Source: a virus
Direction: 5' to 3' (one strand)
Virus record (IMG/VR): IMGVR_UViG_2910705042_000001
Length of the DNA: 48,201 bases
Shown here: positions 1,474-41,295 of the stretch, one piece after another
Position numbering within the stretch: position 1 is the stretch's first letter
How the letters are laid out: the number at the start of each line of letters is the position of its first letter
The notes under the pieces: model-generated
What the model saw: only the letters and a program-made list of their open reading frames with translations
Told to the model about the DNA's origin: nothing
The model's database searches: none
Position numbers and translations under genes: made by a program

Positions 1474-1481
1474 CCGCACAC
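1474..1481 (+). promoter_or_regulatory. CCGCACAC promoter-like octamer (leadered gene 1548)
   Basis: CCGCACAC-GGAGTAGGT|G; SD AAGGAG before ATG 1548. Confidence 0.6.
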
Positions 1482-1547
1482 GGAGTAGGTGTACTCGTCG
1501 CACCCAAAAACAGGCGACAATAAACTGAAGACTCTCAAGGAGAACAC

Positions 1548-2753
1548 ATGTCTACTCACCGTAAGGCGTGGATTGCGGGCATTTCCGCCTTTGTTGCCAT
1601 CGCAGTCATCTTCGCCGGCGTTCTTGTCTGGCGAAGCAACGCCCGAGACAACCGCATCGCCGAATGGAAGGAAGCCGCCACCTCGCTTGCCCAGACGTTG
1701 GGAGTTGCCCGAGGGACAGTCGCGTATGCCGGACTCGTAACCGATTCGATTGGTGACACTGACGTCGACACATCCCTGACAAAGGCCTCCACAACTGACC
1801 GTGAGGCACTGGAGGGGATTCTGGAGACCGTTGATCTGGACATCTTCACTCCCGCCGAATCGGAGGAGACATTTACGCTCGCCGATGTCAGCGTGCTGGA
1901 TACGAATACCGATGATCTGTGGAGCGATGTTCCCTCCACGGCGGGCTTCTATCGACTCGGTGATGACGGCGGTGTTGTGGGTATCAATGCTGCCGACACG
2001 GTGACTTTCCCTACCGAGTCGGTCATGGAGAAGAAGGAGAACACCGAAAGACTCACCGCATTGGATCAGAGCTTGCGCACTGCCATTGGCGCGGTCTCCG
2101 CCAGTTCTCAGTCTTTGTCCGAGGGGATCGCCACAGCCCGGCTTGAGGCGGCAACCGCCACGTTCAATGATTCCCACGAGGCCCTGACTGACGCGATCAC
2201 CGCAGGAGAGAAGGTTCTCAAGGACTCAGAGGGTAAGGTCTCAAGCAACGAGACTCGCCAAGACTTGCGAGACAAGCTCGATGCGGCGATTGAGGCTCGG
2301 GATGCCGACGATCCGACGGATGTGGATGGTCTGCTTGCCATGGTGGAAGACATGGATTCTCTTGCCGCGTCGGTGACGAAGGCATCCACGTCTGTCACTG
2401 AGACGGTGGCTGCGACGAAGGCTGCCGCAGAGGAAGCTGCGGCCAAGGCGGCTGCTGAAGCGGCGGCAGCCAAAGCTGCGGCGCAAGCGTCCAACTCGTC
2501 ATCGGGCAGGTGGTCTGGCACGTCGTCCTCATCCGGTTCGTCATCGTCAGGCTCATCATCCTCATCCGGTTCGTCGAGTTCGAGCGGTTCCTCTTCGAGC
2601 TCAGGCGGCAGCGGCGGTAAGTCCGGCTCTGTTGGCTTCGCTCCCGGCACGCAAGTTACAACATGCACCGACGGACAAATCAGTATTTCGTCGCTTGGAT
2701 ATACGACCCAATGCAGGAATGGTAAGTGGGTGACGATCTCGAAGAACCCCTGA
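1548..2753 (+). CDS. Membrane-anchored/secreted coiled-coil protein with Ser/Gly-rich linker
   Basis: N-terminal hydrophobic helix, Ala-rich helical region, S/G low-complexity linker, short two-Cys C-terminal module; SD AAGGAG. Confidence 0.75.
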   Translation: MSTHRKAWIAGISAFVAIAVIFAGVLVWRSNARDNRIAEWKEAATSLAQTLGVARGTVAYAGLVTDSIGDTDVDTSLTKASTTDREALEGILETVDLDIFTPAESEETFTLADVSVLDTNTDDLWSDVPSTAGFYRLGDDGGVVGINAADTVTFPTESVMEKKENTERLTALDQSLRTAIGAVSASSQSLSEGIATARLEAATATFNDSHEALTDAITAGEKVLKDSEGKVSSNETRQDLRDKLDAAIEARDADDPTDVDGLLAMVEDMDSLAASVTKASTSVTETVAATKAAAEEAAAKAAAEAAAAKAAAQASNSSSGRWSGTSSSSGSSSSGSSSSSGSSSSSGSSSSSGGSGGKSGSVGFAPGTQVTTCTDGQISISSLGYTTQCRNGKWVTISKNP

Positions 2754-2850
2754 AACGCGACCACACCTCTTCTCACGCCCCTTGCCGGTCACCCGGTGAG
2801 GGGCGTGCGTTGTCTGTGAGATGAAAATACCGGGCCCTTCTGACAGATTC

Positions 2851-3651
2851 TCATGCGGCGATGGGCACGCGTTGATGATGGTCGCGGAACCACTTCGACG
2901 TGTAGCAGGGTCGGCATAGACCTTTCGCATAGTGCTTGTCTCCACACTGGCTACACACTTTGGCCGGACGATAGACAACCTCATGAGGGTGTTCTCGATG
3001 GTACTTGCACAGGCCCGTCTCGTTGGAAACGCGAGGGCATCCTGGTATCGAGCATGGTGTTCGTTCGGCGACGAGGGTCACGAGAGGATCGCCCGTCGTC
3101 TTGAGTCGGTGGTAATGCTTGTTGCACAGTCCGCGTCCATGGAGTTTCTGTCCACATTCAGGAACCGAGCAGACGACACCTTGAGGACGTCTCGTTCCAA
3201 CTGGCATGTCCATGGGGCGCTGGTAGACCTCCCGGTAGCGATGACGGCTGCACCACAGCTTTGTCTCTTTCGGGGTGCGATGGCATCCGGGATAGATGCA
3301 CTCGCGTGGGGCTGGCGGTCGGGACGTGTCGACCTCCGGCTGAATGATCGTGTCTACCGGTTCGGGCAGGTGGGTGATCCAGTGGGCGAGTCTGTCGTCC
3401 CCGTGGCGTGTAGATGCGAGGCGTGCCCCGGCTTGGGTCAACACGGTGACTGTGCGTCCGCGTCCGGTGATGGTAGCAATCGTCACCTTCCGTACTCGCC
3501 GCTCACCCAGTCCGGTGACGAGAGTCTGAATGTTGCGAATGTGAAGCTCACGGGCAATGTCTGCGGCGATGAACAGGCGTGATCCGTGTTGGACGACCGT
3601 GCGCACAACGGCGTTGTTGTAGCTGTGGACATAGACAGTTTCGTAAGTCAT
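2851..3651 (-). CDS. Bro-N (antirepressor-like) domain protein with four Cys/His zinc-finger-like repeats
   Basis: VRTVVQHGSRLFIAADIARELHIRN is Bro-N-like. Repeats: CIYPGC..CSRH, CSVPEC..CNKH, CSIPGC..CKYH, CSQC..CRPC. Start placed at ATG 3651 by the octamer 9 nt upstream. Confidence 0.65.
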   Translation of the reverse strand: MTYETVYVHSYNNAVVRTVVQHGSRLFIAADIARELHIRNIQTLVTGLGERRVRKVTIATITGRGRTVTVLTQAGARLASTRHGDDRLAHWITHLPEPVDTIIQPEVDTSRPPAPRECIYPGCHRTPKETKLWCSRHRYREVYQRPMDMPVGTRRPQGVVCSVPECGQKLHGRGLCNKHYHRLKTTGDPLVTLVAERTPCSIPGCPRVSNETGLCKYHREHPHEVVYRPAKVCSQCGDKHYAKGLCRPCYTSKWFRDHHQRVPIAA

Positions 3652-3660
3652 GGCTACTTC

Positions 3661-3722
3661 GTGTGCGGGTCGTGCGGAGTGAATGAACACACACCACGGG
3701 GTTCCCCAGATCTTCCGCACAC
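3661..3722. promoter_or_regulatory. Divergent pair of CCGCACAC octamers
   Basis: Minus copy 3661-3668 is 9 nt from ATG 3651; plus copy 3715-3722 is followed by ATAGGAGAT|G, upstream of gene 3782. Confidence 0.7.
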
Positions 3723-3781
3723 ATAGGAGATGGAACCTTCCACGGTTCCGCGCACACCCTTCGTCATAGAAAGGAAACGGT

Positions 3782-9316: not shown

Positions 9317-9365
9317 GTGTGCGGATGCCTCCCCACCGGGTTCGCCAGCACGGTGTCCCGCACAC
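9317..9365. promoter_or_regulatory. Divergent pair of CCGCACAC octamers
   Basis: Minus 9317-9324 is 9 nt from ATG 9307; plus 9358-9365 is 9 nt from ATG 9375. Confidence 0.75.
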
Positions 9366-9374
9366 AGGGAATGT

Positions 9375-9692
9375 ATGGACTTTCTTTCTCATCATTTCTC
9401 TGCGTCGATGACGCGAGCCATTGACCTCGCCAGTGCAGCCCACACCGACCCGATCGACTTCTGCAATGCGCACCACATCGCGCCTGTGGATGGGTCGACT
9501 CTTGTGTTCGCTGGAACCACAGGCCAGGCCGATGTTCGTATCGTCTTGGCAGGTTCATCCACGCGAGTATCGGTGACTCATGGAGAGGCAACAGTCACCA
9601 GCGACATGCTCTCCGACGGTTCGTTCACACTCGTGGCAGACGAACCCGGACGCTGTCACATTGACGTGACTGACGCGGGGAGCATGTCATGA
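9375..9692 (+). CDS. Hypothetical protein; probable truncated member of the CCFH family
   Basis: IDLASAAHTDPIDFCNAHHI resembles the N-terminal core of genes 13989, 21683 and 31689, but the CCFH tail is missing. Confidence 0.5.
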   Translation: MDFLSHHFSASMTRAIDLASAAHTDPIDFCNAHHIAPVDGSTLVFAGTTGQADVRIVLAGSSTRVSVTHGEATVTSDMLSDGSFTLVADEPGRCHIDVTDAGSMS

Positions 9693-10579
9693 GGCGTGTG
9701 TCTGGCGTTGCGGGCGCGGCGCTTGTCTCACTGTGTGTTGTGGCGTGTGCGTGGTCTGAAGCGCCCAGTTCTGTGTCTGTGACGGCGAAGTCTTCTCCGA
9801 CGGTTGCGTCGAATGCCGTGATGGAGGTGGGGCTTGCCTCACCAACGCCCCGACCCAGCCCGTCGGCTACACAGACTGCCAGTCCCACTGTCTCCCCGAG
9901 TCCACAGACTGCCAGCCCCACCGCCTCCCCGACCCCCAGCGCGGAGCCGTCATATGTCTCCACACCAGCCAAGGGGGTGCTTCACACGAGCGTGCCCTCG
10001 TTGAATGTGCGTGGTGGTCCGGGGGTCGATTATGCGGCCAATGGGTCCCTGTCTGCGGGGGAAAGTGTCTCCTATGTGGCCACGAGCAACGGGTGGTATG
10101 AGCTTGAGCGTGGCGGGTGGGTCAGTGGCACGTATGTAGAGCAGGGCTCTGCCCCCGCTGCCTCATCTGACTCCGTGGCCTCTTCATCCACACCTTCGAG
10201 CAGTTCGACTCCCGTACCCACGGTGCAATCAACGCCAACCACGTCCGCACACGCGGTGTGGATACGGACCCACGGCGGACAGGCAGAGATCGACCAACGC
10301 AGCGGGGCCGTCTATATCGACGACGTCGCAGGCTGGCTCGGAAAGCCCTACATCGCCATGCACAATAGCGCCGGTGCGAGGGAATGGACGACGTGGAATG
10401 TGGGAGAAACAGTCACACTGACAGGCCTCATATCCGGGACGTACACAGTTACTGCCATGACGTGGGGCGTTCAAAGGGATGAGTCGTCAAAGCTCCTTTC
10501 CTTGCCCGGAACCATTCTCCTTCAGACGTGCCAAACCGGGGGCGGGGGAAACCTCGTTGTCTCGCTTGTTGGTAAGTGA
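9689..10579 (+). CDS. Exported SH3b-domain protein with C-terminal sortase-like domain
   Basis: Hydrophobic N-terminus, S/T/P linker, SH3 motif LNVRGGPG..Y....NGWYEL...GWVSGTYV, then YIAMHNS...LLQTC. Confidence 0.65.
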   Translation: MRRVSGVAGAALVSLCVVACAWSEAPSSVSVTAKSSPTVASNAVMEVGLASPTPRPSPSATQTASPTVSPSPQTASPTASPTPSAEPSYVSTPAKGVLHTSVPSLNVRGGPGVDYAANGSLSAGESVSYVATSNGWYELERGGWVSGTYVEQGSAPAASSDSVASSSTPSSSSTPVPTVQSTPTTSAHAVWIRTHGGQAEIDQRSGAVYIDDVAGWLGKPYIAMHNSAGAREWTTWNVGETVTLTGLISGTYTVTAMTWGVQRDESSKLLSLPGTILLQTCQTGGGGNLVVSLVGK

Positions 10580-13203: not shown

Positions 13204-13497
13204 ATGTCTCCCAACGCCTGCGAGCTCATTGAGCTCATGGAGCAAGCACTGGGTGACACCGAACAGTTCTTCTGCAACAAGGTCATGAGGAACGTGCCCG
13301 GGCAGCCGGGTGCCTATGAAGGGGTGTTCGCCAACGCCTACGTGAAAGTTGACTTCTCGGGCGTCTTTGTTGTCAGTTCCATTTCGATCGAACGGGAAGG
13401 TGTCGTGGTCGACGTGGACTCATCGGGCGAACGTGAGATGCGTTTCTCAGCCTCACCGCAGCGGCCCCGCACACAACTGGGGTATGAGTATCAGTGA
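13204..13497 (+). CDS. Hypothetical protein; possible truncated CCFH-family member
   Basis: LIELMEQALGDTEQFFC...YEGVF resembles the family N-core; no CCFH tail. Confidence 0.35.
   Translation: MSPNACELIELMEQALGDTEQFFCNKVMRNVPGQPGAYEGVFANAYVKVDFSGVFVVSSISIEREGVVVDVDSSGEREMRFSASPQRPRTQLGYEYQ
13467..13474 (+). promoter_or_regulatory. CCGCACAC octamer
   Basis: CCGCACAC-AACTGGGGT-ATG (13484). Confidence 0.75.
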
Positions 13498-13971: not shown

Positions 13972-13979
13972 CCGCACAC
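13972..13979 (+). promoter_or_regulatory. CCGCACAC octamer
   Basis: CCGCACAC-TACCTCGGT-ATG (13989). Confidence 0.75.
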
Positions 13980-13988
13980 TACCTCGGT

Positions 13989-14693
13989 ATGAATATCAGT
14001 GATGACGCGGCCAGCCGCCGTGAACAGTACCGCAACCCCATCGGACAGTTCGGCGCCCAGCCGGGAGTCCACTCTCTCGGACAGGTGAGCCTCAACCCGA
14101 GCCGGTTTACCGACCAGGAGCGAGAGTTCATCCAGATGGGGCGGCGGGCCAGTGCGCGTCCCTACCAGTTCTGTGACGAGCATGGCATCAGCGCCTCAGA
14201 CAAGAATCATCCCATCTTCACAGGATTCGTGGGGGACACCTGTGTCACCATTGCCGTCCACCCAGGCGACGAGAGACTGGTGATGATGGAGCGCGACGGC
14301 ATGTCTATGGAGGTGCGCCAACGCTCGGGTGAGAGTGAGCCCTACCGCATAGATTTCTCCAGTGCTGGGCACGCATACGTTCACACCATTGATGAGGACG
14401 GACGTGTCTTCGATAGCGTCTCATACTTGCGGACTGGAGAACTGTCGGCCAGATGCTCCGACCCCCAGTGGCGACAATACACAACAGCACACACCAATGG
14501 CGTCGACAATCTCGTGCCCGTCACCTTCATCCCCGGCAAAGAACCGGGAACCTATACCGATCCTTTCGGCAACGAAACACTCAGCCAAAGGGATGTTGAC
14601 GAGCGTTTCAGCCCCACCACGTGTTGTTTCCACTCCGACTTCGATGACTCGATCTTCGAGGATACCTCTGCCTTCCTGACGGAGACTCACTAA
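13989..14693 (+). CDS. Tagged CCFH-family protein
   Basis: N-tag SRREQYRNPIGQFGAQPGVHSLGQVSL; tail DERFSPTTCCFHSDFD. Confidence 0.7.
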   Translation: MNISDDAASRREQYRNPIGQFGAQPGVHSLGQVSLNPSRFTDQEREFIQMGRRASARPYQFCDEHGISASDKNHPIFTGFVGDTCVTIAVHPGDERLVMMERDGMSMEVRQRSGESEPYRIDFSSAGHAYVHTIDEDGRVFDSVSYLRTGELSARCSDPQWRQYTTAHTNGVDNLVPVTFIPGKEPGTYTDPFGNETLSQRDVDERFSPTTCCFHSDFDDSIFEDTSAFLTETH

Positions 14694-14777: not shown

Positions 14778-14785
14778 CCGCACAC
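14778..14785 (+). promoter_or_regulatory. CCGCACAC octamer
   Basis: CCGCACAC-CACTAGTGA-GTG (14795). Confidence 0.7.
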
Positions 14786-14794
14786 CACTAGTGA

Positions 14795-15493
14795 GTGAGC
14801 ACCCCATACGCTGAAGAAGACCATCCACGAGACCCCCACGGGCAGTGGATGTCCACGTGCACGCGCAATAGCGCATCACGCGTGACACTCGCCGCTGCGG
14901 ACACGCATTCTCCTGACGAAGAAGTCCTGCGTGCAGCACAATCCATGTTCACCAACCCTGTGCGTTCCGTCATCGAGCATCACCTCGAACCGATCGCGGG
15001 TGTGGACCACGAATACGCCGGCGTCATTGACTCCCTCCACGTGCGTCTTCACTTATCCCCATCCATGACCATCGCCGAGGCAAAGGACCCCATCCACGGT
15101 GTCGAAGCGACCATGCGCACTCACGTCTATGAAGGGTTCTCCGTGATAGTGCGTTGGATGACCGAAGAGCGGGAAGAGAGCCACCACATACTCCCTTCCG
15201 GTGAGACATGTGATGTCCTCGAGTCCCACCAGTCAGGCCGTAATGTCCGCACACGCCAGCCGAATGGGGACGTTCGTTTCGAGTTCCTGTCAGCCGATGA
15301 GGCAACCTACATCACGGCGGATGAAGAGTATCCAAACGTCTATGTCGCCCATGACGGCTCGACATACACCCAAGGCGAAGTCGACAAAACGTTCGGCCCC
15401 GAGTGTTGCTTCCATACAGATTTTGACCCCAAGGCCTTTTCTACGCCCGCCGTGTTTCATGTGTCAGGTTTTCCGCACACAAGGGAGATATGA
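14795..15493 (+). CDS. Tagged CCFH-family protein
   Basis: N-tag YAEEDHPRDPHGQW...VTL; tail DKTFGPECCFHTDFD. Confidence 0.7.
   Translation: MSTPYAEEDHPRDPHGQWMSTCTRNSASRVTLAAADTHSPDEEVLRAAQSMFTNPVRSVIEHHLEPIAGVDHEYAGVIDSLHVRLHLSPSMTIAEAKDPIHGVEATMRTHVYEGFSVIVRWMTEEREESHHILPSGETCDVLESHQSGRNVRTRQPNGDVRFEFLSADEATYITADEEYPNVYVAHDGSTYTQGEVDKTFGPECCFHTDFDPKAFSTPAVFHVSGFPHTREI
15473..15480 (+). promoter_or_regulatory. CCGCACAC octamer
   Basis: CCGCACAC-AAGGGAGAT-ATG (15490). Confidence 0.7.
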
Positions 15494-20857: not shown

Positions 20858-20868
20858 TCTTCCCTAAC

Positions 20869-20916
20869 CGAAACAGGGGACGTTTCCAGTCGATTCTGGG
20901 AACGTCCCCTGTTTCG
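20869..20916 (+). terminator. Stem-loop terminator
   Basis: CGAAACAGGGGACGTT(T)CCAG ... CTGG(G)AACGTCCCCTGTTTCG. Confidence 0.75.
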
Positions 20917-21060
20917 TGTGCGGTACGAGGCGCCCCACACATAACGCCTAGAACGACGACACTGACCGCGTCGCCCAACTGGAAAGGGACACCCCCCGAC
21001 CTCTTCCGACAGATCTCGACATGATCCGGTTTAACGACAGCGGTGAATTGCCCCGGCTAC

Positions 21061-23158: not shown

Positions 23159-25798
23159 TCAGATATCTGTTGCGGCTTTGAGTGCATCCCGGAATTCGGA
23201 CATGCGGTTCTCCTGGTTGTAGAACGGCAGGCCGATGATTCTGTAGTCGGTATTGTCGACGTAGATGGTGTGCGGGATAGCGTTCTGCTCGATGGCGAGC
23301 AAGAATTCTTCCTTCCATTTGTCGGTTTCGAGTAGGTGCGTACCCTTCGGCTCCACGTAGATCTGTTGCTGCTGGTAGGGCTGGCCCTTCCGGCGCAAGA
23401 AGAGGAGGAAGTCGGGTTCGAATCGTTCGCCGGTCTCAAACGAGTAGATGGCGAGCGGCGCCAGCCGTTCGTTGCGCACCAGGCAAACCTCGTCGTAGCG
23501 CTGTTTGAGGTCGTCGACAACGGTCGAGAAGTACTTGACGAAGGATTTCTCTTCGCTGGTGCCATAGTTGTCGTTGTAGACATACCATTCGGCGTTTTCA
23601 AGGTTAACGCGACGGATGGAATCAGGATCGCTGCTTTGGCTAGTTCCGATCCCACCTTCGACCGGATTCGCGATCTGTAGGCGCTTGTTGCGTAGTACCT
23701 CGTTCAACCGTTTGGCTTCGAACTGATGCGTGCCACGGTAGGTGACCTTGATGCCTGCCATGTAGCTGGCGACGGCTCGGAAGACTATGTCTAGGCCAGT
23801 CCTCAAGTCAGCCGCAGTGAGGTCTACAGTGTCGCTTTGGAAGGTGATCTCAGTTTCGCCGAGGTAGTCGCTAGACGTGATGAACTCGCGGGTCGATTCC
23901 AAGTGAGGGAAATAGTGCTTGAGCGCCTCGAAGCGGAGTGCGTCGTAACGCGCCAACGATCCCAAGGTCACATTCAATGGCATCTCGTTGATCCTACGGC
24001 GGATCGTATGCACCTTCGGATTCTCGGACTTGTCTGTTTGCTCGGTGGCTGTATCGAAGAGACTAACGAGCCGTGAGGGGGCGTGGCGGACATCGCGTTG
24101 GTAGATCGCCGACTTGACCCGGTTCTCCAGTTGGGTCACTCCATCCCGGGAGACTTCCTCGCGGCTGTTACTGAACACCATCGCGTTGTGGTAGAAGTCA
24201 GTCTGTTTGAACGACGATTTGAGTTCGTAAGTGACTTCGGTGACCTCATCAGGCAGTAAGCCTGTTTCACGTAGCGCGAGGCGTAGCTCGGTGATGTACT
24301 TCGAGTCCTGCTTGGAGTGGTAGAGCAGGGTTTCAAGGAGCCGGTTGGGGCTGTCAAGGTCGTGATCGTACTTGCGGACGGACTTGTCTGCCTGGTCGCG
24401 ATCAATGGACTCGTTTTCAAGAAGGAACGGGAAGTAGCGCGCTCCGCGCCCGATCAACTGAGCTTCCTTGATCGTGTACGCGCCGGGCTTGCCTGCTTTG
24501 CCTCCCTGACGAGTTTCGTAGAGGCGGACGATGTCGTAGAGGTTTAGGACGTCCCAGCCTTCGTTGAGCATGTCGACCGTGAAGATGATCCGATACGGGT
24601 TGGAGTGATCTTCGAGGGAGTTCACTGCCAACTGCTTCTCAGTCGAGTTGTCGGTCGAGCCATTCATGATGATGGCGTTCTCTTCAGCAAACCCCTGCTG
24701 GATGCTTGAGCGCAGGGAGCGTAGGCTCGGATCCTTCTCCTGGAAATAGCCGATGGCTTGTTTCATCAGGCCGTCGGTGGCCAAGTCCTGGATTTCGGAC
24801 TCGGTGAGTCGTTGGAGTCGCTGGAAGAACTGGTCGTAGAACGCTTTCGAATCATCGATCCTTTGCGACTTCAACAAAACAACCGGTTTCGAGTACACGC
24901 CACCATCAGCGAACAGTGCACGGCGATACTCAGACAAGATCAGTGATTGAAGAGTCCTTCCCCAGGGATCGAAGACAGATTGGAAGTTCTGGAAGTCCTT
25001 CGTGAACCCAGACTCGCGGAATCGCGCCAGCGGGTAGTCAAAGACAATCTTGTCCTTGTACTTCCGAAGAATGTTGCGGTCACGCAGATCGACAGTCGCC
25101 GTGAACTCCAGCAGCACATTATACCGGTTACCTAGAAAGGCCGAGATGACCGTGTATTCCCATGAGCGGTCCTCCTCGTCCTCGGACTTCGTGGCCCTCT
25201 TCGTTCGCGTATTCACGTGGTGTGACTCGTCAGAAATCATCACCACCGGTGCATCCTCGAAGTCATCGCTTGTGAGCGCGTTTTCCTTCGGATCAAGGAA
25301 ATCCATGTGCAGTTTTTGCGTCGTCGAGAAACAGAGGTTGATAGCGTTCGGATCGGCGGCAGCGAAGTTGTTGACCTCGTTGATGGGAACCCGCATACCA
25401 TCGATCTCAATTGACTCGGCGAACAGATACTTCGCTGAAGCCGAGTCCAAGAAGTTGGCTTTGGTTTTCTCGATGATGTTCGTTTGATTCACGAAGAACA
25501 GGAAGTTGCGGTATCCGAGCGAGTAGTAATGCAGGATCAGGCCAGCCATCATCACGGTCTTACCTGAACCGGTCGCCATGTGGTAAAGCAAGTGCGTCTG
25601 TCGGTTCTTCGAGAAGTTCTCGTTGCTCAGATATTCGAGCGTGTTTGAGAACGCGTGCTCTTGGTATTCGCGCAACTCGATGTGCGGGGCGAGATTCTGC
25701 TCGATGTGGGCAGGTAGCTCGTGTCGATTCCCGAAGTCATAGAAGAGGTCGAGTTGCTGGAACAGGAGCATGTCTTGGGTAGTTGGGACGCTCATCAT
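23159..25798 (-). CDS. res: Type III restriction endonuclease (Res subunit)
   Basis: SF2 helicase motifs MATGSGKT, DESHH, FTAT, EGWDV, QLIGRGAR; C-terminal PD-(D/E)xK (FEPDF...VEPKG); overlaps the mod stop. Confidence 0.9.
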   Translation of the reverse strand: MMSVPTTQDMLLFQQLDLFYDFGNRHELPAHIEQNLAPHIELREYQEHAFSNTLEYLSNENFSKNRQTHLLYHMATGSGKTVMMAGLILHYYSLGYRNFLFFVNQTNIIEKTKANFLDSASAKYLFAESIEIDGMRVPINEVNNFAAADPNAINLCFSTTQKLHMDFLDPKENALTSDDFEDAPVVMISDESHHVNTRTKRATKSEDEEDRSWEYTVISAFLGNRYNVLLEFTATVDLRDRNILRKYKDKIVFDYPLARFRESGFTKDFQNFQSVFDPWGRTLQSLILSEYRRALFADGGVYSKPVVLLKSQRIDDSKAFYDQFFQRLQRLTESEIQDLATDGLMKQAIGYFQEKDPSLRSLRSSIQQGFAEENAIIMNGSTDNSTEKQLAVNSLEDHSNPYRIIFTVDMLNEGWDVLNLYDIVRLYETRQGGKAGKPGAYTIKEAQLIGRGARYFPFLLENESIDRDQADKSVRKYDHDLDSPNRLLETLLYHSKQDSKYITELRLALRETGLLPDEVTEVTYELKSSFKQTDFYHNAMVFSNSREEVSRDGVTQLENRVKSAIYQRDVRHAPSRLVSLFDTATEQTDKSENPKVHTIRRRINEMPLNVTLGSLARYDALRFEALKHYFPHLESTREFITSSDYLGETEITFQSDTVDLTAADLRTGLDIVFRAVASYMAGIKVTYRGTHQFEAKRLNEVLRNKRLQIANPVEGGIGTSQSSDPDSIRRVNLENAEWYVYNDNYGTSEEKSFVKYFSTVVDDLKQRYDEVCLVRNERLAPLAIYSFETGERFEPDFLLFLRRKGQPYQQQQIYVEPKGTHLLETDKWKEEFLLAIEQNAIPHTIYVDNTDYRIIGLPFYNQENRMSEFRDALKAATDI

Positions 25799-27780: not shown

Positions 27781-28669
27781 TGTGCGGCCTCTTCCTTCAT
27801 AGTTAGGGTTGTTGTTAGTTGCGCGTCCATCTGTCTGCAAGGAGCGCATGAACTTTTGACAAGCAACCGAATGGCTGCGTAAGTGCAGAAGTGCCGGCTA
27901 GACAACCGCCGCCCACTCTGTGTTGAACGGCGTCGTAACGCGTCATCGGCGACCCAGAAGAATAATGCCAACTGGCTCATGCGTCTTCTGCCTTATCTTT
28001 GTCCGCAGGCACAACTTCGAGGATGTCTGCCATTTGGCAGTCGAGTGCTCCGCAAATGCGCAGAAACTTGTCTGCCGTGTCCCACACGATCCGGGCCGTA
28101 GCCGATGCTGCTGCCCTCGTTGCCTCGTTCGCCATGCCTCGTTGCTCCTATGTTTTCGCGCACTGATACCACTCACTCACCGTGAGTCGGCCTCTTTGCA
28201 TGTGGTCTCGCGAACCTCGTGGACGTGTTCGGCGAGACCGTTCACCACGGATTACCCTAGTCTGTCATCTTCATGGAGAGCCATGTGGAATCGTATAGCG
28301 GGAGTTACTGCTTCACGTCGATGAGGGTGTATGCGGCCTCGTCTTCGTCGAAGAACTCTTCTCCGTTGACTTCGGTCATTTCAAACATCGACTCGTGCAT
28401 TTCGCACTGTACGAGGTACTCACCACCTGCAAGGGCCTCCTCTTTCGCGACGCAGAAGGTATCCTGCTCCCGTTCTTCCGTGGCATGTGAGCAAGGATGA
28501 CGTGGTATATGTGGTCCACTCCTCTTTACTGTCGGCCCCGCTCCCTCGGTCCAATCGCGACCCACCACCGACGCCTTAGAGCTGAGGCGGCGATACGGAC
28601 ACATCCGCCAATGTCAGTGCACCGAGTGGGGAGTTCACATCCGGCGGTGCATGGGCAATCCATATATCG

Positions 28670-31623: not shown

Positions 31624-31679
31624 GTGTGCGGCTGGGTGGTTGTGGGTTGCCCTTGTGGGTGGGTGTGGGCGCCGCACAC
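31624..31679. promoter_or_regulatory. Divergent pair of CCGCACAC octamers
   Basis: Minus 31624-31631 (AACAGAAGT|G, leadered gene 31576); plus 31672-31679 is 9 nt from ATG 31689. Confidence 0.75.
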
Positions 31680-31688
31680 TACTGGGGT

Positions 31689-32348
31689 ATGAGAACAGCA
31701 TTTGATGAGTCCGACCATCCACGCAGGCCCACTGGAGAGTTCACGACTAAGGCGGGGGTCAACGCACCTGGCGGGCTGAGTCTTGAGAGCCCGTCGCGCT
31801 TCTCATCCGAGGAAGACGAACAGATCCGCCTTGCCCACGACATCATGGTTGATCCGGACGGATACGCCCGGACCCATGACATCCCGACTTTCACAGAGCT
31901 TGGCAGTCACGGATGGGCGAAACTCATCGGCGATACGTACATGTCTGCCGGAGTGAATGGGCGAGAGACTGTCGTTCACATGGGCAATGCGACGATCACA
32001 AGCTTCCAAGGAGATACATCCACCGAACGGGCATACTCGATGCGACTGGGGGATCAGAGCCGGATACGACACACAGAGGATCTCCACAGCACGCTCGACA
32101 CCATTGAGCATTCGGCAGGTGGGGTGAGCGAGCGCTTGACCGTTGATGGTGAGTCATCCATTGTGTTCACGAGCCGACGCGGAGAAGCAGTGTCGCGAAC
32201 GGGAGACGGTACCTACCTTGTCGGTCGTGGCGAAACTCTCAGTCAGTCCGAGGTGGATGAGAGGTTCGGTCCCCAATGTTGCTTCCACTCCTCATTCGAC
32301 GAGGCAACATTCGATGAGAACGCCGAGTTCTTGACTGGCTCGCGATAG
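31689..32348 (+). CDS. Tagged CCFH-family protein
   Basis: N-tag FDESDHPRRPTGEFTTKAGVNAPGGLSL; tail DERFGPQCCFHSSFDEATFD. Confidence 0.7.
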   Translation: MRTAFDESDHPRRPTGEFTTKAGVNAPGGLSLESPSRFSSEEDEQIRLAHDIMVDPDGYARTHDIPTFTELGSHGWAKLIGDTYMSAGVNGRETVVHMGNATITSFQGDTSTERAYSMRLGDQSRIRHTEDLHSTLDTIEHSAGGVSERLTVDGESSIVFTSRRGEAVSRTGDGTYLVGRGETLSQSEVDERFGPQCCFHSSFDEATFDENAEFLTGSR

Positions 32349-32427: not shown

Positions 32428-33138
32428 GTGGCAGACAGTATCGAACCCGTACACGTCGACGAAGCCGGATATGAGACCCACCCAGCGTTCGGTGTCGTCA
32501 CAGTTTCTCGGAGTCACGGAGACCGTAGGGCTGTGTTCCAGTCCGACATTGAACACAACGACACGATCCGTCTGCGGGTGTTCCACGCCGACCGCAGGCG
32601 AAACCTCAAACGAGACTGGGTGCATCCGACCCAACGAATCCTTGAAATCGAGATGAGTCTGGCCCAATGGGGTGAGCTCGTCTCTTCCATCGGCATCGGT
32701 TCAGGCGTCCCTGTCACACTTCGGTCCACCGAGTCACGCCACCACATCCCCGAACTCGAGTTCGCACCGCGCGTGGAGGTGTCCTTGTCGGAAGTTGATT
32801 CGGCGGTCGACACTCTCTTGGAAGACATCACCACCTCTCTGACTGATGTGGAAGAGGCCATCGAATCCAAGGCTGGCATCCGGGCGACCCGTGACGCTAT
32901 GCGCAAGCTCCGCTCCTGCGTCGAGAACGCCCGCCCAAACGCCCGCTATGTCGTCACAGCCTTGTCCGAGGCGGCAGAAAAGGTCGTCTCCCAATCCAAG
33001 GCCGACATCGAAGCCACCATTCTTCACGCCTACGGTGCCGTTACCGGAGTGGATACTCCCGCCGCACTGGGTGGTCAGACCCACGACAGTGGACGCCTGA
33101 CCGAAACCCGCACACAAGACTCCCATGAAGACGAATGA
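32428..33138 (+). CDS. Phage/plasmid-type hypothetical protein
   Basis: ETHPAFG...IEMSLAQWGELVSS.G.GSGVPVTL followed by a coiled coil. Confidence 0.65.
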   Translation: MADSIEPVHVDEAGYETHPAFGVVTVSRSHGDRRAVFQSDIEHNDTIRLRVFHADRRRNLKRDWVHPTQRILEIEMSLAQWGELVSSIGIGSGVPVTLRSTESRHHIPELEFAPRVEVSLSEVDSAVDTLLEDITTSLTDVEEAIESKAGIRATRDAMRKLRSCVENARPNARYVVTALSEAAEKVVSQSKADIEATILHAYGAVTGVDTPAALGGQTHDSGRLTETRTQDSHEDE

Positions 33139-34094: not shown

Positions 34095-34102
34095 CCGCAC
34101 AC
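34095..34102 (+). promoter_or_regulatory. CCGCACAC octamer
   Basis: CCGCACAC-TACTAGGGC-ATG (34112). Confidence 0.75.
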
Positions 34103-34111
34103 TACTAGGGC

Positions 34112-34891
34112 ATGAGCATGAACAGTGACGCCGTCGACCGGCGAGAGCAGTATCGTCGCCCGACCGGACAGTTCGGTCATCAGCCGGGTGCGGGGGAGGC
34201 AGCCACTGTCAGTCTTGCCCCGGGGTTCCCAGAAGGGGTCAATCTGACCGGGTTCGCTGTGACGAATGGGCTCGCTTCCTTCCGTGTGGGCGATGACGAA
34301 GAGGTCACTGTGGTGATGGACGGGGAGGAAGTTGTGGTCAGCAAAGTTGTCTACGACGATGAAGGAATCCTCTACACGCAAGACGATGTCATCAACGCGG
34401 GAGATATTGATGGCGTCAACGAGTCTCTTGACCGTTTGACGAAGCGAGCTGACACACCACAGGCACACATCTGGGAAGAAGATGGGTCCACATTCACTCA
34501 GATGCCGGACGGTAGTTTGAGTGAATATCGGGACGGAGTTGTGGTGCGGCGTTGGGTGCTCCGGGATGATGGTGTTCTCCGGGTCGACAATCTCATGGTG
34601 GGGCAGGCATACGCGTCGGGTGCGACGAAAGAAGAGGTTGATGCAGCCCTTTTCCCGTCCACAAACGGACGCCCACAATTCTTCGAGCGCAACGAGATTC
34701 TGGCTGCCCTGGCCGACGGACGACAGATCGCCACCGTGTATGGTCCTGACCGTCCTGAAGTTGCTCAAGAGATCGCCAGATACGTGCAGGGTCTCGAGTA
34801 TCACCCCAATCCCAGTGAAAGAACCTTGCGAGCGATCACCAACGGAAAGCGGTACCTCAACGATGCCTATTACGGCTACGTCATGATCTGA
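34112..34891 (+). CDS. Tagged hypothetical protein
   Basis: N-tag DRREQYRRPTGQFGHQPG...VSL. Confidence 0.7.
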   Translation: MSMNSDAVDRREQYRRPTGQFGHQPGAGEAATVSLAPGFPEGVNLTGFAVTNGLASFRVGDDEEVTVVMDGEEVVVSKVVYDDEGILYTQDDVINAGDIDGVNESLDRLTKRADTPQAHIWEEDGSTFTQMPDGSLSEYRDGVVVRRWVLRDDGVLRVDNLMVGQAYASGATKEEVDAALFPSTNGRPQFFERNEILAALADGRQIATVYGPDRPEVAQEIARYVQGLEYHPNPSERTLRAITNGKRYLNDAYYGYVMI

Positions 34892-34961: not shown

Positions 34962-34969
34962 CCGCACAC
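34962..34969 (+). promoter_or_regulatory. CCGCACAC octamer
   Basis: CCGCACAC-TACTAGGGC-ATG (34979). Confidence 0.75.
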
Positions 34970-34978
34970 TACTAGGGC

Positions 34979-36235
34979 ATGAGCATGAGTGCGAGCGCCA
35001 AGGAGCGCCAAGAACAGTACCGCAAGCCCACTGGTGAATACGGCAACCAGCCGGGAGTCAACGCCCCCGGGGGCGTGTCTTTAGCCCCAGACACGTTGAC
35101 GCGTGATGAGTTTGCCCGCACTCATTCCATCCCAGGACCAGATGAGGACTGGACCCAAGAAGCCCTGACCGGAGGGTTCTCCAAGCAAGGATGGGGACAA
35201 CTCAACCACGCCACACCGATCGCCACCGGGATCACCATATGCGACGGTGAAAGCCATGGCGGCATCAAGCTTTCCCCCGAGCGCAACGCCCACATACCCA
35301 AGTCCCTGCGCACGAGCTCGGGGTGGTATGAGGAAGACTGCGAGTTCCACATTGTCTCCATGTGCTACCCAGAAGAGTTCTCCCGCTCGACGGCATGGAC
35401 GAACAATCGCAGTGCCGATGAGTGGTTTGAAGACTCGAGTGACAGCGTGCGCGGATGGTTCCCCAACCAATGGGAAGAAGCCACCGGTAGAACAATCGCA
35501 CCCGGTGAGTCTCGCCTACGCGACGAGCAGGTGTTCATGGAGGAAACGAAAGACGCTTTCCACCTGCGCACATGCAAGAGTGACGCCGAGAATCCCGGAT
35601 GCCTCATCGCCAGTCTCCGCCGCCCATCCGATGACAAAGGGGTTCTCGCGCGTGTGTCGGAAGAGGCAGATCACAGGTGTTCCCACCTCAAGGCATACGA
35701 CGAGACCTCGCTCGATGTCCTCTCCGAAGCGGTCACCCCAGTTCTGGCCGAGAAGAGGATCTATAAAGGTGCGTCACCCGACTTTTCTCATCTCTCCCCG
35801 TCACGCCGGCACGCGGCGGGAGAGGCCCTGGGCAAGCTGTACCGCTACCCAGAGGGGGTCATGAGCCGGGCAGAGCACATCGCCACACTCCCCGTCACGG
35901 GGCGTGAACACATCGGGCGTGGCTATTACATCGCCTACGATCAGAAAAACGACAATGGAACAACGACGACCCATGTGACGAAGCTGCCCAAGGAGGCGTG
36001 GGAGGCGTACGGGCACATCCCTGAACGGACAGATGTCGTAGATGACGAGCGCATCGCCCAGCGTGGATGGAGCGTTGCCGGGTTCGACAAAGCCCATGCC
36101 GCCTACGTCGCGAGCGCCCGTGAGAATGGATACCTGACGCAGAACGGGCAGGTGTCTAGGGATGCTCCGCAAGAGGCCAAGGATGTGTTTGAGGATCTGA
36201 GGGTTTTCGGTGCTCGGAACTGGTTGAACAGCTGA
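34979..36235 (+). CDS. Tagged protein with DUF7007-like domain
   Basis: N-tag RQEQYRKPTGEYGNQPGVNAPGGVSL; WG...GI...SHGGIKLSPERN...GWYEEDCE. Confidence 0.65.
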   Translation: MSMSASAKERQEQYRKPTGEYGNQPGVNAPGGVSLAPDTLTRDEFARTHSIPGPDEDWTQEALTGGFSKQGWGQLNHATPIATGITICDGESHGGIKLSPERNAHIPKSLRTSSGWYEEDCEFHIVSMCYPEEFSRSTAWTNNRSADEWFEDSSDSVRGWFPNQWEEATGRTIAPGESRLRDEQVFMEETKDAFHLRTCKSDAENPGCLIASLRRPSDDKGVLARVSEEADHRCSHLKAYDETSLDVLSEAVTPVLAEKRIYKGASPDFSHLSPSRRHAAGEALGKLYRYPEGVMSRAEHIATLPVTGREHIGRGYYIAYDQKNDNGTTTTHVTKLPKEAWEAYGHIPERTDVVDDERIAQRGWSVAGFDKAHAAYVASARENGYLTQNGQVSRDAPQEAKDVFEDLRVFGARNWLNS

Positions 36236-38329: not shown

Positions 38330-38544
38330 GGACGCTCCTCGCTGGACGGACAGTGGTTTCCGTGATCCATCGTAGCTGTCCCAACAATCACGAGTTGCTG
38401 AGACACGGCGTCGAACAGGTGCATCGAATGGACTGATCCGCACACTGGCCCGATACACCTCCTGAAGACTCATTCTCAAATGTCCGAACCTAGAAGTACT
38501 CTTAGAAATGGGACAGAGACGAGTAGATGATAATCGAGGGCAAC

Positions 38545-38746
38545 GTGATTTACGGCTACATCAGAGTCAACACCGCGCAGCAAGCTAGGGAAGGAACCTC
38601 GCTCGCCTCCCAACGGTAGGCACTGGCTGAAGCGGGTGCGGAGCGTTTGTGCAAGGACGCCGGTCAGCCGGGAGCAAAGAAGAGCCGCCCGGCCTTGGAC
38701 GATCTGCTCAACCATCTCCGCCTTGGCGACGCGGTGGTCGTCACCA
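38545..38746 (+). pseudogene. Serine resolvase N-terminal remnant
   Basis: MIYGYIRVNT..Q...SL..QR*ALAEAG...SRPALDDLLNHLRLGDAVVVT; in-frame TAG at 38617-38619, then truncated. Confidence 0.75.
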
Positions 38747-38983
38747 CATTCATGACGCCGGTTGGTAGGGGTGTTGTCATGAGCTTGTCTCAGACGTGGT
38801 ATGACCTCGTTTCTCGGACAAATGATGGCGGAGTTCCCCGTACGGTTGCTGAAGTGCGCGCAGCGCTCGATCGGGTGGTTTCGATAGAGGAGAAGCGGAA
38901 GCTTGTTGCCTCGAAGAAGAGGGTGCCACTGTCTGTTGCGAAGAGTCTGTCGTCTGTGTCGGCATTTTGACGAAGACTGTCGA

Positions 38984-39400
38984 TCATCGAACGTGGAGGC
39001 ATCCGTTACGAATGAGTGCGTCGAGGTCCCCGAAGTCGCCGGGGCTTCCCTGCCTTCGTGTGAGTGCCGCGAGCGCCCGGTGGGTGAGGTGGACAGGTAT
39101 CGGGCCTCCTCGGGCGGAATAGGCTGTCTCAGCGCTGATTGTGCATGTGGTGAGGATGCGTAGGTCCGTTGTGGTGGTGATTTCGAGGAGTTGGCCGTCG
39201 GCGATGAGGTCGTCGATCGCGTCGCGGGGGTGAGCCGTTAAGACGGAGAGGACGCCAAGAGTTTCCTCGCGTGTGCGCAGGCACGACCAGAATCCGGTTG
39301 GGGGCGTGTGTCCATGTGCGACATAGACTCGACCGGTGTCCAGTGGACGCACTGATATGGCCTGCATCCACGGAGGCAGGGTGTTGTCAGGAAGGTTCAC
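38984..39400 (-). CDS. Hypothetical protein
   Basis: 138 aa; GTGA overlap with the upstream nuclease gene. Confidence 0.5.
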   Translation of the reverse strand: MNLPDNTLPPWMQAISVRPLDTGRVYVAHGHTPPTGFWSCLRTREETLGVLSVLTAHPRDAIDDLIADGQLLEITTTTDLRILTTCTISAETAYSARGGPIPVHLTHRALAALTRRQGSPGDFGDLDALIRNGCLHVR

Positions 39401-40203
39401 CGGCGCTTGCGCCCTTCCACGAGCCCGAAGTAGATGAGGAAGGCGATGGTCAGTGCAATGATGCTGACCGAGTTCTCGCGGGCGGTTCTCGTGATCGTGT
39501 CGAGAGCGTCACCGGAGGCTTGCACGTTCCCCTCCGTGGTAGATGTGTCTGCGCCGTGCGTGGTCTGCGAGGCTGATGGTGTGGAGCTCGTTGCCATACC
39601 GGCACAACCGTGGAGGGTCGAGACGAGAGCATCCTTGTCTTCGGGAGGAATCGTCAGGTCGTGTGTGGCAACGATCGTGGTGAAGTTGACCGCGTACTCG
39701 CACGAGAAGTCTGGGTTGGCCGGCATCCAGTCTGAGGGGCCTTTGTCGCCTTTGGACATGTTGGCCTTACCTTGGACAGCCAGAAGATTGTCAGTGTTGT
39801 TGGCAAAAGCGACCCGCTCGTCTTGAGTCCACGAGTCCGCCCCGTTCTGCCACGCCCACGAGAGCGGGACAATATGGTCAATTTGAACTTGGGTGGGCGA
39901 GGCTTTCGTGAATCGGATAGTTGTCCCCGTGTAGGGGTCTTCCAAGGTGCCGGACTGAACCTTGCAGTCACTTCCCGACACAAGGACGACATCGCTCAGG
40001 TCGCGGGCAAGAACATCATTTCTCGTGTCACACCCATTCTTGTCAGTGTCCTTCCACCCGTCGGCGAACTGGGCCGACCTGTCATACTCCGCCGACGGTT
40101 CTGAAACCGTGACGGTCAGGGCCTCGGCAGCCGCGAGCGCATCGTCGATTCCGGCATGAGTGATCGTGGCCAAGAAGGTGGTGGCGAGAAGTGCTGTCAA
40201 CAT
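39397..40203 (-). CDS. Exported HNH nuclease (DUF1524-type) with C-terminal TM anchor
   Basis: YDRSAQF..W.D.D.NGCDTRNDVL, DPYTG, QIDHIVPL..AW, FAN..DNLLAV...N.SKGDKGP..W.P. Confidence 0.85.
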   Translation of the reverse strand: MLTALLATTFLATITHAGIDDALAAAEALTVTVSEPSAEYDRSAQFADGWKDTDKNGCDTRNDVLARDLSDVVLVSGSDCKVQSGTLEDPYTGTTIRFTKASPTQVQIDHIVPLSWAWQNGADSWTQDERVAFANNTDNLLAVQGKANMSKGDKGPSDWMPANPDFSCEYAVNFTTIVATHDLTIPPEDKDALVSTLHGCAGMATSSTPSASQTTHGADTSTTEGNVQASGDALDTITRTARENSVSIIALTIAFLIYFGLVEGRKRR

Positions 40204-40212
40204 ACCCGAGTA

Positions 40213-40220
40213 GTGTGCGG
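40213..40220 (-). promoter_or_regulatory. CCGCACAC octamer
   Basis: CCGCACAC-TACTCGGGT-ATG (40203). Confidence 0.75.
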
Positions 40221-40223
40221 GCC

Positions 40224-40670
40224 TTAGTCCATGCGCACTCCGGGCAGCCCGACGTCGAAGATTGAGGCGAAATAGGTGGAGTTGTCTCTCACCCACGGGG
40301 GTGTCATATGGTCGATGTCGTCTTGGCTGACCTCTTGTGTGCCGTTGGATGACGTCACGTTGTAGGTCCCACCTTCCAGTGGTGTGACGACGCATCCGTC
40401 CAGGGACCACATGTTGTCAGGGCCCTCGCAGTAGATGTGGTCGGGCAAGATGGCGTTGCGCACGAGTCCTTCACTATCGGATCGGGTCAGAGTAAAAGAG
40501 CTGCCCGGAACGTGGACGATGAGGCGTTCACCGTCAGGTGCCGCGAAGTAGTCCACGCCGGGCCAATGCACGGAGCGTTCGGGGTTGATGGTCACGTCGG
40601 TCAGCCCATACGTGTGCGGTGTTGCCTGCCCAAAGCACAGGGACCGGGGGATCTCGAAGATGTCGCTCAT
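40224..40670 (-). CDS. Hypothetical protein
   Basis: 148 aa; octamer 9 nt upstream; C-terminus (VSQDDID...SIFD) weakly resembles the CCFH tail without the Cys pair. Confidence 0.6.
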   Translation of the reverse strand: MSDIFEIPRSLCFGQATPHTYGLTDVTINPERSVHWPGVDYFAAPDGERLIVHVPGSSFTLTRSDSEGLVRNAILPDHIYCEGPDNMWSLDGCVVTPLEGGTYNVTSSNGTQEVSQDDIDHMTPPWVRDNSTYFASIFDVGLPGVRMD

Positions 40671-40679
40671 GTGTTATGT

Positions 40680-40699
40680 GTGTGCGGGAATCCGCACAC
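40680..40699. promoter_or_regulatory. Back-to-back CCGCACAC octamers, 4 nt apart
   Basis: GTGTGCGG-GAAT-CCGCACAC; each copy is 9 nt from an ATG (40670 minus, 40709 plus). Confidence 0.75.
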
Positions 40700-40708
40700 A
40701 CAACACAC

Positions 40709-41272
40709 ATGAGCAGATATGAGATACGTCCTCGACGTCGACCAGCCAAACTCAGCCGCAGGGTGCCCGTATGGGTGGGGTTATGCGACGTGAGCAACAA
40801 GCGAAAGTACTCAACGAAGCGAGGTGCCAAGGGAGCGGCCAAAGAAGTGCGAGGAGATCGGGAGATGTCGGTCTATAGGTGTCCTGACTGTGGATACTTC
40901 CACGTCGGACACACCCATGGCATGACTCGGCAGTTCTTCCGCGACATCCGCACCGAAGAGAATCTGCAACCAGACGAGTTCGACGACAAGCCGACATACC
41001 CGGGATACACGACACTGTCACACCTCTCATTCGGTAAGAACCTCATCATTTCGATGCGTTCACGCCGCCATCCCGACCACATCTATATGGCGTGGGAGAA
41101 GGTTCGTCCAGGACAAACCCCATTCAGCGACCCGGACAGATCCGACATTCGGGAAGTCACGTGTGAGAAAGACATCCATGCTTTCATCTCCGACCATGCC
41201 TCCTACATCCTCCAGACGGAACCACAGCGCGCCCACAAACTCCACATGGAAACCCTGACAGCCCTCGGGTGA
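40709..41272 (+). CDS. Hypothetical protein with C..KRKY...YRCPDCGYFHVGH zinc-binding motif
   Basis: Motif; start set by the octamer. Confidence 0.6.
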   Translation: MSRYEIRPRRRPAKLSRRVPVWVGLCDVSNKRKYSTKRGAKGAAKEVRGDREMSVYRCPDCGYFHVGHTHGMTRQFFRDIRTEENLQPDEFDDKPTYPGYTTLSHLSFGKNLIISMRSRRHPDHIYMAWEKVRPGQTPFSDPDRSDIREVTCEKDIHAFISDHASYILQTEPQRAHKLHMETLTALG

Positions 41273-41287
41273 GACGCAACGCCGCAC

Positions 41288-41295
41288 CCGCACAC
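41288..41295 (+). promoter_or_regulatory. CCGCACAC octamer (leadered gene, cut by IS256)
   Basis: CCGCACAC-TACCCACAT|G; SD GGAGG; ATG 41336 (MSDTPELDDA) runs into the IS end at 41365. Confidence 0.6.

Follow-up and report, generated by a model that had tools for sequence, protein, structure and literature searches.

Which machinery reads the octamer CCGCACAC, a sequence that recurs across the 48,201 nucleotides (nt) of IMG/VR virus record IMGVR_UViG_2910705042_000001 and stands time and again at the same short distance from a start codon? This stretch, called the window in the following, corresponds to genome positions 1,002,232-1,050,432 and lies wholly within an integrated element of about 149 kb (genome 912.3-1061.4 kb) on a single 2.66-Mb contig (57.8% G+C); all positions given below are those of the window unless marked as genome positions. 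Very probably, the octamer is a promoter, and about 50 genes of the 149-kb island are most likely under its control. Judging from the spacing to the start codons, most mRNAs of this regulon would begin directly on the start codon. As for the reader, a tandem sigma-like protein encoded by the element itself is the candidate that we favour, albeit with appreciable doubt.

The window contains 29 copies of CCGCACAC; in 100 dinucleotide-preserving shuffles, there were 2.81 on average and never more than 7. A first-pass annotation of this DNA had placed the octamer exactly 9 nt (N9) before the start codons of 16 genes; all 16 spacings were exact on recheck, and a 17th start absent from the earlier list was found, in which the octamer at 33108 leads to the ATG at 33125 of an open reading frame (ORF) of 204 amino acids (aa). 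Likewise, the seven intergenic copies described as having a T|purine step at the same position all do so, and behind five of them a Shine-Dalgarno (SD) sequence leads to a gene that starts 15-57 nt from the predicted +1, namely at 1548, 3782, 11989, 31576 (minus strand) and 32428. The 9-nt spacer, previously characterized as variable and mostly devoid of an SD sequence, indeed varies except for G at -2 and a pyrimidine at -1. Corrected must be the statement that four copies form divergent pairs, as there are four pairs and eight copies (3661-/3715+, 9317-/9358+, 31624-/31672+ and 40680-/40692+). Only 4 nt separate the two octamers of the last pair, so that upstream promoters have no space there. 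The predicted promoters and two further intergenic copies are as follows.

3649..3668, minus strand: predicted leaderless promoter, octamer 3661-3668, N9, ATG 3651, ORF of 266 aa
9305..9324, minus strand: predicted leaderless promoter, ATG 9307, YdjM-like protein of 241 aa, divergent from the 9358 copy
9358..9377, plus strand: predicted leaderless promoter, ATG 9375, 105 aa
10585..10604, plus strand: predicted leaderless promoter, ATG 10602, 444 aa, N-terminal tag (see below)
13467..13486, plus strand: predicted leaderless promoter, ATG 13484, 160 aa, N-terminal tag
13972..13991, plus strand: predicted leaderless promoter, ATG 13989, 234 aa, N-terminal tag
14778..14797, plus strand: predicted leaderless promoter, GTG 14795, 232 aa, N-terminal tag
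15473..15492, plus strand: predicted leaderless promoter, ATG 15490, sortase of 230 aa
21061..21080, plus strand: predicted leaderless promoter, ATG 21078, 202 aa
28670..28689, plus strand: predicted leaderless promoter, ATG 28687, 251 aa, N-terminal tag
31672..31691, plus strand: predicted leaderless promoter, ATG 31689, 219 aa, N-terminal tag, divergent from the 31624 copy
33108..33127, plus strand: predicted leaderless promoter, ATG 33125, 204 aa, missing from the earlier list
34095..34114, plus strand: predicted leaderless promoter, ATG 34112, 259 aa, N-terminal tag
34962..34981, plus strand: predicted leaderless promoter, ATG 34979, DUF7007 protein of 418 aa, N-terminal tag
40201..40220, minus strand: predicted leaderless promoter, ATG 40203, GmrSD/HNH nuclease of 268 aa
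40668..40687, minus strand: predicted leaderless promoter, ATG 40670, 148 aa, octamer back to back with the 40692 copy, 4 nt between
40692..40711, plus strand: predicted leaderless promoter, ATG 40709, 187 aa
1474..1550, plus strand: predicted leadered promoter, octamer 1474-1481, predicted +1 G 1491, SD AAGGAG, ATG 1548, 401 aa
3715..3784, plus strand: predicted leadered promoter, predicted +1 3732, SD, GTG 3782, AgI/II-type adhesin of 1360 aa
11957..11991, plus strand: predicted leadered promoter, predicted +1 11974, SD AAGGAG, ATG 11989, 297 aa
31574..31631, minus strand: predicted leadered promoter, octamer 31624-31631, predicted +1 31614, SD AGGAG, ATG 31576, 117 aa
32379..32430, plus strand: predicted leadered promoter, predicted +1 32396, SD GAGGAG, GTG 32428, 236 aa
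38438..38455, plus strand: octamer with T|A at N9, no gene downstream, probably a remnant promoter
41288..41305, plus strand: octamer with T|G at N9, SD, then an ORF of 14 codons only, remnant or small peptide

On the scale of the genome, 200 octamers were counted, with expectations taken from an order-2 Markov model. Within 912.0-1061.4 kb there are 67 where 9.5 are expected, and the other 2.51 Mb hold 133 compared with 118.8 expected. The element specificity that had been proposed is thus borne out by a whole-genome scan, with enrichment inside the conjugative element only and chance level elsewhere. Nor is the motif equally common before host genes: the octamer followed by N9, an ATG or GTG and an ORF of at least 40 aa accounts for 33/67 copies inside the element vs 2/133 outside. 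An SD leader and a gene follow 19/67 copies inside and 17/133 outside, leaving 15/67 and 114/133 other copies, respectively. Among the element copies, 31 of the 33 classed as leaderless and 17 of the 19 classed as leadered have a pyrimidine|purine step at -1/+1; taken together, 52/67 element copies show the N9 distance to either a start codon or such a step, each oriented with the ORF.

The logo of the element copies reads y-CCGCACAC-W-A-n-n-n-r-n-G-Y-ATG-A, with W-9, A-8, G-2, Y-1, A+1 and A+4 being conserved besides the octamer. Within the octamer, C at -12 and A at -11 are invariant, and T at -7 is found in none of the 33 leaderless copies. The earlier judgement that the box does not fit the actinobacterial -10 element TANNNT is therefore upheld, as only A-11 of the anchor positions is kept. 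The description as a single-box promoter holds in part: a search of this element for a GTGAG-like -35 box at a fixed position found none, but the relatives from Arthrobacter have a -35-like cGGtGAGA. One-mismatch octamers with N9-ATG and an ORF occur in 0 cases in the element vs 10 chance cases elsewhere in the genome, and since no such variant is used, the exact octamer is the only form in use. According to the model that we propose, the octamer would span -17 to -10, and the 10th base after it would be +1. In two thirds of the used copies this +1 would coincide with the A of the start codon, so that the mRNA would have no leader; the remaining used copies would yield a leader of 15-60 nt with an SD sequence. 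The box would thus take the place of the extended -10 region and the upstream half of the -10 element, a -35 box being dispensable here.

The element is a large integrative conjugative element, because it unites an integrase with transfer and replication genes. Its left end is marked by a tyrosine integrase (genome 912,523-913,713), and host genes resume from about 1,061.4 kb. The transfer module comprises a VirB4-like AAA_10 ATPase, two FtsK-like ATPases, a three-domain cell-wall hydrolase (SLT/NlpC/M23) and SSB, and further element genes encode WhiB, a DnaE-type polymerase, ParA as well as PD-(D/E)XK, SNF2 and AAA_30 proteins. No direct repeat of at least 14 nt (att) was found between the two element ends, and no relaxase family was matched among the element proteins scanned. 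The part of the element covered by the window features an AgI/II-type adhesin, a sortase, a DUF11 surface protein, a type III restriction-modification pair, an OLD nuclease and a GmrSD nuclease.

Related elements carry the same box with the same spacing. The exact motif is not enriched in the other 337 genomes of the host family, with at most seven N9-ATG copies each vs 35 here. Plasmids of 375-607 kb from Arthrobacter, Paenarthrobacter, Pseudarthrobacter and Curtobacterium encode homologues of the element VirB4 with 36-38% identity, and homologues with 24-27% identity are encoded on Bifidobacterium megaplasmids and a Euzebya plasmid. For CCGCACAC-N9-RTG, Arthrobacter NZ_CP104273 has 82 N9-start copies (control 0). 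For CGCACAC-N9-RTG, the counts are 83 on Paenarthrobacter pYJN5-1 (control 1), 90 on Pseudarthrobacter pACHL01 (control 0), 22 on Curtobacterium pS16 (control 0), 1 on B. breve pMP7017 (control 1) and 4 on the Euzebya plasmid (control 1). The motif is accordingly absent from pMP7017 and the Euzebya plasmid, as it is from pAO1. In total, NZ_CP104273 holds 202 octamers vs 20 expected, and in its logo the box is longer, gCCGCACACATAGGGG, and is accompanied by the -35-like cGGtGAGA at -38 to -31. RefSeq coding sequence starts agree with N9 in the three of three cases that could be checked. Box and spacing are kept in the four megaplasmids, though the backbone proteins are only 25-40% identical. 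NZ_CP104273 further encodes a group-1-like sigma factor (355244-356371), which is 45% identical to the chromosomal principal sigma factor of the genome studied here and whose gene is leaderless behind CCGCACAC; a group-3-like sigma factor is also present on this plasmid.

The first-pass annotation had assumed that the reader is encoded outside the window and had suggested a search of the replicon for sigma, RNA polymerase and WhiB-like genes; divergent sigma-like genes and a WhiB are present in the element. A concrete candidate is the tandem sigma-like gene about 66 kb upstream, whose family co-occurs with the motif; its role as the reader is what we infer. Searches of the whole genome with Pfam Sigma70_r2 and r4_2 returned nothing convincing inside the element, and Pfam scans of about 70 element proteins matched no polymerase or sigma family. 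On NZ_CP104273, a weak Sigma70_r2 match picks out a 340-aa protein whose gene is leaderless behind the motif. Its single homologue in this genome is an ORF of 641 aa (genome 934687-936612, minus strand), which likewise has the octamer and N9 before its start and is predicted to be leaderless. This ORF consists of two complete units arranged head-to-tail, its relatives being single units of about 330 aa, while in Aeromicrobium two copies occur separately, at a distance of 56 kb. The gene neighbourhood is conserved as well, with a protein of about 1000 aa encoded downstream. An exhaustive HMMER search collected 48 relatives, mostly of 300-385 aa. A word-index protein search had retrieved the query itself only, tblastn of one unit against plasmids gave nothing at E 1e-3, and the family was not found in 400 sampled genomes of the class, this genome excepted.

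Regarding the relationship to sigma factors, 31 of the 33 matches of the family profile in the PDB are sigma factors, the best being SigE in region 2 (E 1.1e-4), and SigA is matched over regions 2-3. The AF2 model of the second unit reached a pLDDT of 82.4, and the top 50 rows of a Foldseek search with it are all sigma chains. In the VIA comparison, the SigE sigma2 domain ranks first (Z 7.4, rmsd 3.7, 79 residues aligned); sigma2 domains make up about 20 of the 50 rows, and in several cases the alignment continues to residue 190 or so. The family thereby shows a weak but consistent match to the sigma2 domain (regions 2.1-2.4). Because the N-terminal part matches sigma factors and the C-terminal part is without a match, the modelled structure is best described as a putative sigma2-3-like module joined to a new C-terminal domain, with sigma4 not being recognised. 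Such a divergent, element-encoded member of the sigma-70 family would direct the host core RNA polymerase to the box, and the location of its gene, leaderless behind its own motif, would create a positive feedback.

The distribution of the family follows that of the box. Each of the four motif-bearing plasmids encodes a full-length member (three with E 5e-60 to 9e-109, the Arthrobacter member having been found separately), and none occurs on the motif-free pMP7017, Euzebya plasmid and pAO1. A scan of species-representative genomes revealed ten further loci of the family, and in eight of these ten the family gene itself starts N9 after the box or a variant of it. The box in this position is CCGCACAC in two Arthrobacter loci and Tersicoccus, CCGCACAT in Actinotalea and Cellulomonas, CCGCACAA in Promicromonospora, CCGCGTAC in Aeromicrobium and CCGCCCTT in Agromyces. 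The variants are found at further genes of these loci, too: in Aeromicrobium, gccgcgTACCTAG with GTGAGCG upstream of it occurs five times, and each of three Cellulomonadaceae and Promicromonospora loci has six to nine copies of CCGCACA(T). On the chromosome of Aeromicrobium sp. CTD01-1L150, the variant promoter (GTGAGCG, about 13 nt, gCCGCGTACCTAG) appears five times in 20 kb (2926547-2947374), and from one copy an N9 spacer leads to the ATG of the sigma-like gene at this locus. In the protein tree, the box variants track well-supported sigma-like clades.

Several points speak against the assignment of this family as reader. The transcription start site is a prediction from the spacing. The similarity to sigma factors is weak, with a Pfam Sigma70_r2 score of 20.9 bits below the cutoff, Foldseek E-values of 0.12 or worse for the model of the second unit and a Z of about 7 that is common among helical bundles. 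The C-terminal 127 aa folded alone (pLDDT 86.6, pTM 0.81) resembled neither sigma4 nor another fold (Foldseek E at least 1.7, best VIA Z 3.7). The clades also track host taxonomy, so that their agreement with the box variants is no independent proof, and both units of the tandem protein have diverged extremely (branches of 2.5-3.5 changes per site), yet the octamer is unchanged. Moreover, the co-occurrence is confounded by other backbone proteins that are present in NZ_CP104273 and missing from pMP7017, namely a 1050-aa DUF3854-like protein, a 943-aa protein, DnaE, the PD-(D/E)XK nuclease and the SNF2 helicase; co-occurrence alone thus fails to single out the sigma-like gene, which is distinguished by its sigma similarity together with its nearly constant position behind the box. 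Furthermore, this gene lies within its own regulon, and something else must therefore switch it on first. Finally, the element holds a second sigma-like gene.

This second gene, a 430-aa ORF (genome 966405-967697, plus strand) whose product joins a sigma-like N-terminal half to a thymidylate-kinase-like fold, is the foremost competitor for the role of reader, which we regard as unlikely. Language-model features of its residues 1-245 lie nearest to phage and actinobacterial sigma clusters (Sigma70_r2, r3 or r4) with scores of 0.93-0.94, these scores being leads and not alignments, and the thymidylate-kinase-like nature of the C-terminal half is indicated by Pfam (E 1.5e-7) and PDB (E 8e-9) matches. 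No octamer lies upstream of the gene, which could accordingly start the cascade. Nevertheless, no homologue of the sigma-like half could be detected in the four motif-bearing megaplasmids, the kinase part matches in two only, and there is no similarity to the group-3-like sigma factor of the Arthrobacter plasmid. The 430-aa protein could be an early gene transcribed from a host-type promoter, or else the true reader in this element only.

It is improbable, too, that the host polymerase with its housekeeping sigma factor reads the box with the help of an element-encoded activator, either the WhiB-like protein (genome 975050-975340; E 3.4e-16) or a backbone protein replacing the -35 contacts. 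WhiB proteins bind region 4 of sigma A in Actinobacteria, A-11 is invariant, and only two sigma genes are recognisable in the host genome. The missing T-12 and T-7, with an invariant C in the former position, make sigma A plus an activator unlikely all the same, as does the occurrence of WhiB on the motif-free pMP7017, which uses the extended -10 promoter TGtTATACT; in addition, the motif is at chance level outside the element.

Still less can be said for the box being an array of repressor operators or a sequence that acts on translation at the mRNA level, a reading we consider very improbable. Its models are the stoperators of mycobacteriophages and the start-associated sequences (SAS) of cluster K mycobacteriophages, in which many oriented, identical short sites are likewise spread across a mobile element. 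The fixed N9 to the start codon in 33 cases does not agree with this, nor do the boxes with a pyrimidine|purine step at N9 that lie 15-60 nt before SD-led genes, where they cannot act on the start codon. The back-to-back divergent pairs offer no space for other promoters, and no complementarity to the 3' end of 16S rRNA was seen by eye. That the element has a non-canonical RNA polymerase of its own (single-subunit or YonO-like), which recognises a T7-like promoter from -17 to +4, is hardly credible: the strictly invariant octamer from -17, the second conserved patch at -2 to +4 and large backbone proteins of unknown function (793 and 943 aa) would suit it, but no relevant DxDGD-type motif exists in the element ORFs or the six-frame translation (chance matches in the cell-wall hydrolase and DnaE only), the large proteins match no polymerase family, and the 793-aa protein is also encoded by the motif-free pMP7017.

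With the tandem sigma-like protein as the preferred reader, the system can be compared to known ones. T4 late promoters (TATAAATA) are read by gp55 and have their box at -13 to -6. In both systems, a private regulon is marked by a box of 8 bp near -10 that hardly varies and has no -35 box with it, and the reader, here a putative one, is a divergent, truncated relative of sigma-70 encoded by the element; here, there is a single box without a -35 in the element and a candidate without recognisable sigma4, and T4 gp55 (chain 7d7d_F) is among the fold matches of the sigma-like unit. They differ in the sequence and position of the box (-17 to -10 here), in the mostly leaderless mRNAs and the extra C-terminal domain of the candidate, and in the carrier, a conjugative element and not a lytic phage. 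T4 late transcription also uses the clamp and a gp33-type co-activator, for which there is no evidence here, though no search for such genes was made; DnaE and SSB are encoded. Extended -10 promoters (TGn) contacted by sigma domain 3 are similar in their conserved bases at -17 to -13 just upstream of -10 and in their dispensable -35, and the candidate aligns with sigma A over regions 2-3. They are distinguished by TGn, in place of which CCGCA is found here, and by the downstream hexamer, which lacks T-12 and T-7 here.

Autoregulated extracytoplasmic function (ECF, group 4) sigma factors share the location of the gene behind its own promoter, and the best sequence and fold matches of the family are ECF sigma2 domains (SigE, SigH, CnrH); the Arthrobacter relatives are two-box promoters with GGTGAGA at -38 to -31. 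Unlike in ECF systems, neither sigma4 nor an anti-sigma gene was identified here, and the CGT-type motifs of ECF sigma factors are much shorter and less strict than the -10 box of the element. Stoperators and SAS resemble the octamer in that dozens of oriented, identical short sites are distributed over one mobile element, many beside gene starts, whereas the octamer has its fixed N9 to a start or pyrimidine|purine step, no SD content and additional positions 25-75 nt upstream of SD-led starts. The plasmid pMP7017 has a related transfer system (VirB4 26% identical), with VirB4, FtsK-like, WhiB, SSB and 793-aa proteins in common, and an element-wide repeated promoter of its own. This promoter, in contrast, is a repeat of about 30 nt with the canonical extended -10 TGtTATACT and SD leaders, and both CCGCACAC and the sigma-like family are missing. 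In pMP7017 (NZ_KM406416), about 20 copies of this 30-nt repeat, aTATGtTATACTgaatatgtcCACATAAAA, were seen, each followed by an SD sequence and a gene.

At least ten of the leaderless proteins have an N-terminal tag of about 30 aa in common, (R/N)P-x-G-(Q/E)-(F/W/Y) followed by G-x-N-x-(P/S)-G-(V)-SL, which is located at a constant distance from the leaderless starts. In the window, it is found in the proteins starting at 10602, 13484, 13989, 14795, 28687, 31689, 34112 and 34979, and it recurs in an ORF starting 46 nt before the window and in both sigma-like units. Positions 1 to 30-80 of the family profile match 30-40 other ORFs on each of pYJN5-1 and pACHL01. The tag may be an export or targeting signal. 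As the sigma units share it with a dozen regulon proteins, the sigma factor may be exported through the transfer apparatus. A far-reaching version of this idea, which we put forward as a long shot, is that a new sigma-70 clade, composed of a sigma2-3 half and a new C-terminal fold and lacking sigma4, reads the invariant, extended -10-like octamer and thereby runs a private, almost entirely leaderless regulon on a widespread family of actinobacterial conjugative megaplasmids and integrative conjugative elements, and that the sigma factor may travel with the DNA and start the regulon in the recipient. If true, the exported sigma factor would activate the recipient regulon ahead of any expression of element genes there.

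The remaining octamers of the window are less easily assigned.

10245..10252, plus strand: octamer within ORF 9689-10579, G|A at N9, doubtful function
15247..15254, plus strand: octamer within gene 14795-15493, N9-ATG of an out-of-frame 110-aa ORF, probably unused
20916..20923, minus strand: intergenic octamer, 17-bp perfect inverted repeat directly after it (20860-20923), no gene
23268..23275, minus strand: octamer within the type III res gene (low-GC cargo), probably chance
40612..40619, minus strand: octamer within gene 40224-40670, doubtful function

For the octamer at 20916 with its inverted repeat, a role as a decoy, as the start of a small RNA or as a terminator that also serves the convergent gene is conceivable. 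The type III restriction-modification pair (23159-27849, minus strand) has a lower GC content (50-55%) and no functional box, and looks like cargo outside the private regulon. Besides, the element contains a CRISPR array (44640-45360, minus strand) with about 12 copies of a 36-nt repeat and 28-nt spacers at a period of 64, in which two neighbouring spacers are identical.

No published description of the motif or the protein family was found in the literature, where the octamer sequence turned up in primers only; the repeats reported for pAO1-type plasmids concern a plasmid group without the motif and without the sigma-like family. A mobile-element sigma factor with a private promoter is of a kind known already, and it is the box, the leaderless output, the C-terminal domain and the conjugative setting that differ from T4 late and extended -10 promoters. 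A private code of sigma factor and promoter is well known for phages and, to our knowledge, hardly known for conjugative elements. The code offers a compact orthogonal pair of promoter and sigma factor for high-GC Gram-positive hosts, gives exact gene starts for hundreds of hypothetical proteins and provides a natural system to study leaderless initiation and sigma factors without region 4. In the 149-kb island, about 50 promoters are explained by this one code of eight bases, as are 80-90 leaderless promoters on each of several plasmids of 400 kb, which belong to soil and gut Actinobacteria. With a sigma factor and a promoter code of their own, such mobile elements would be able to express their genes independently of host promoter recognition.

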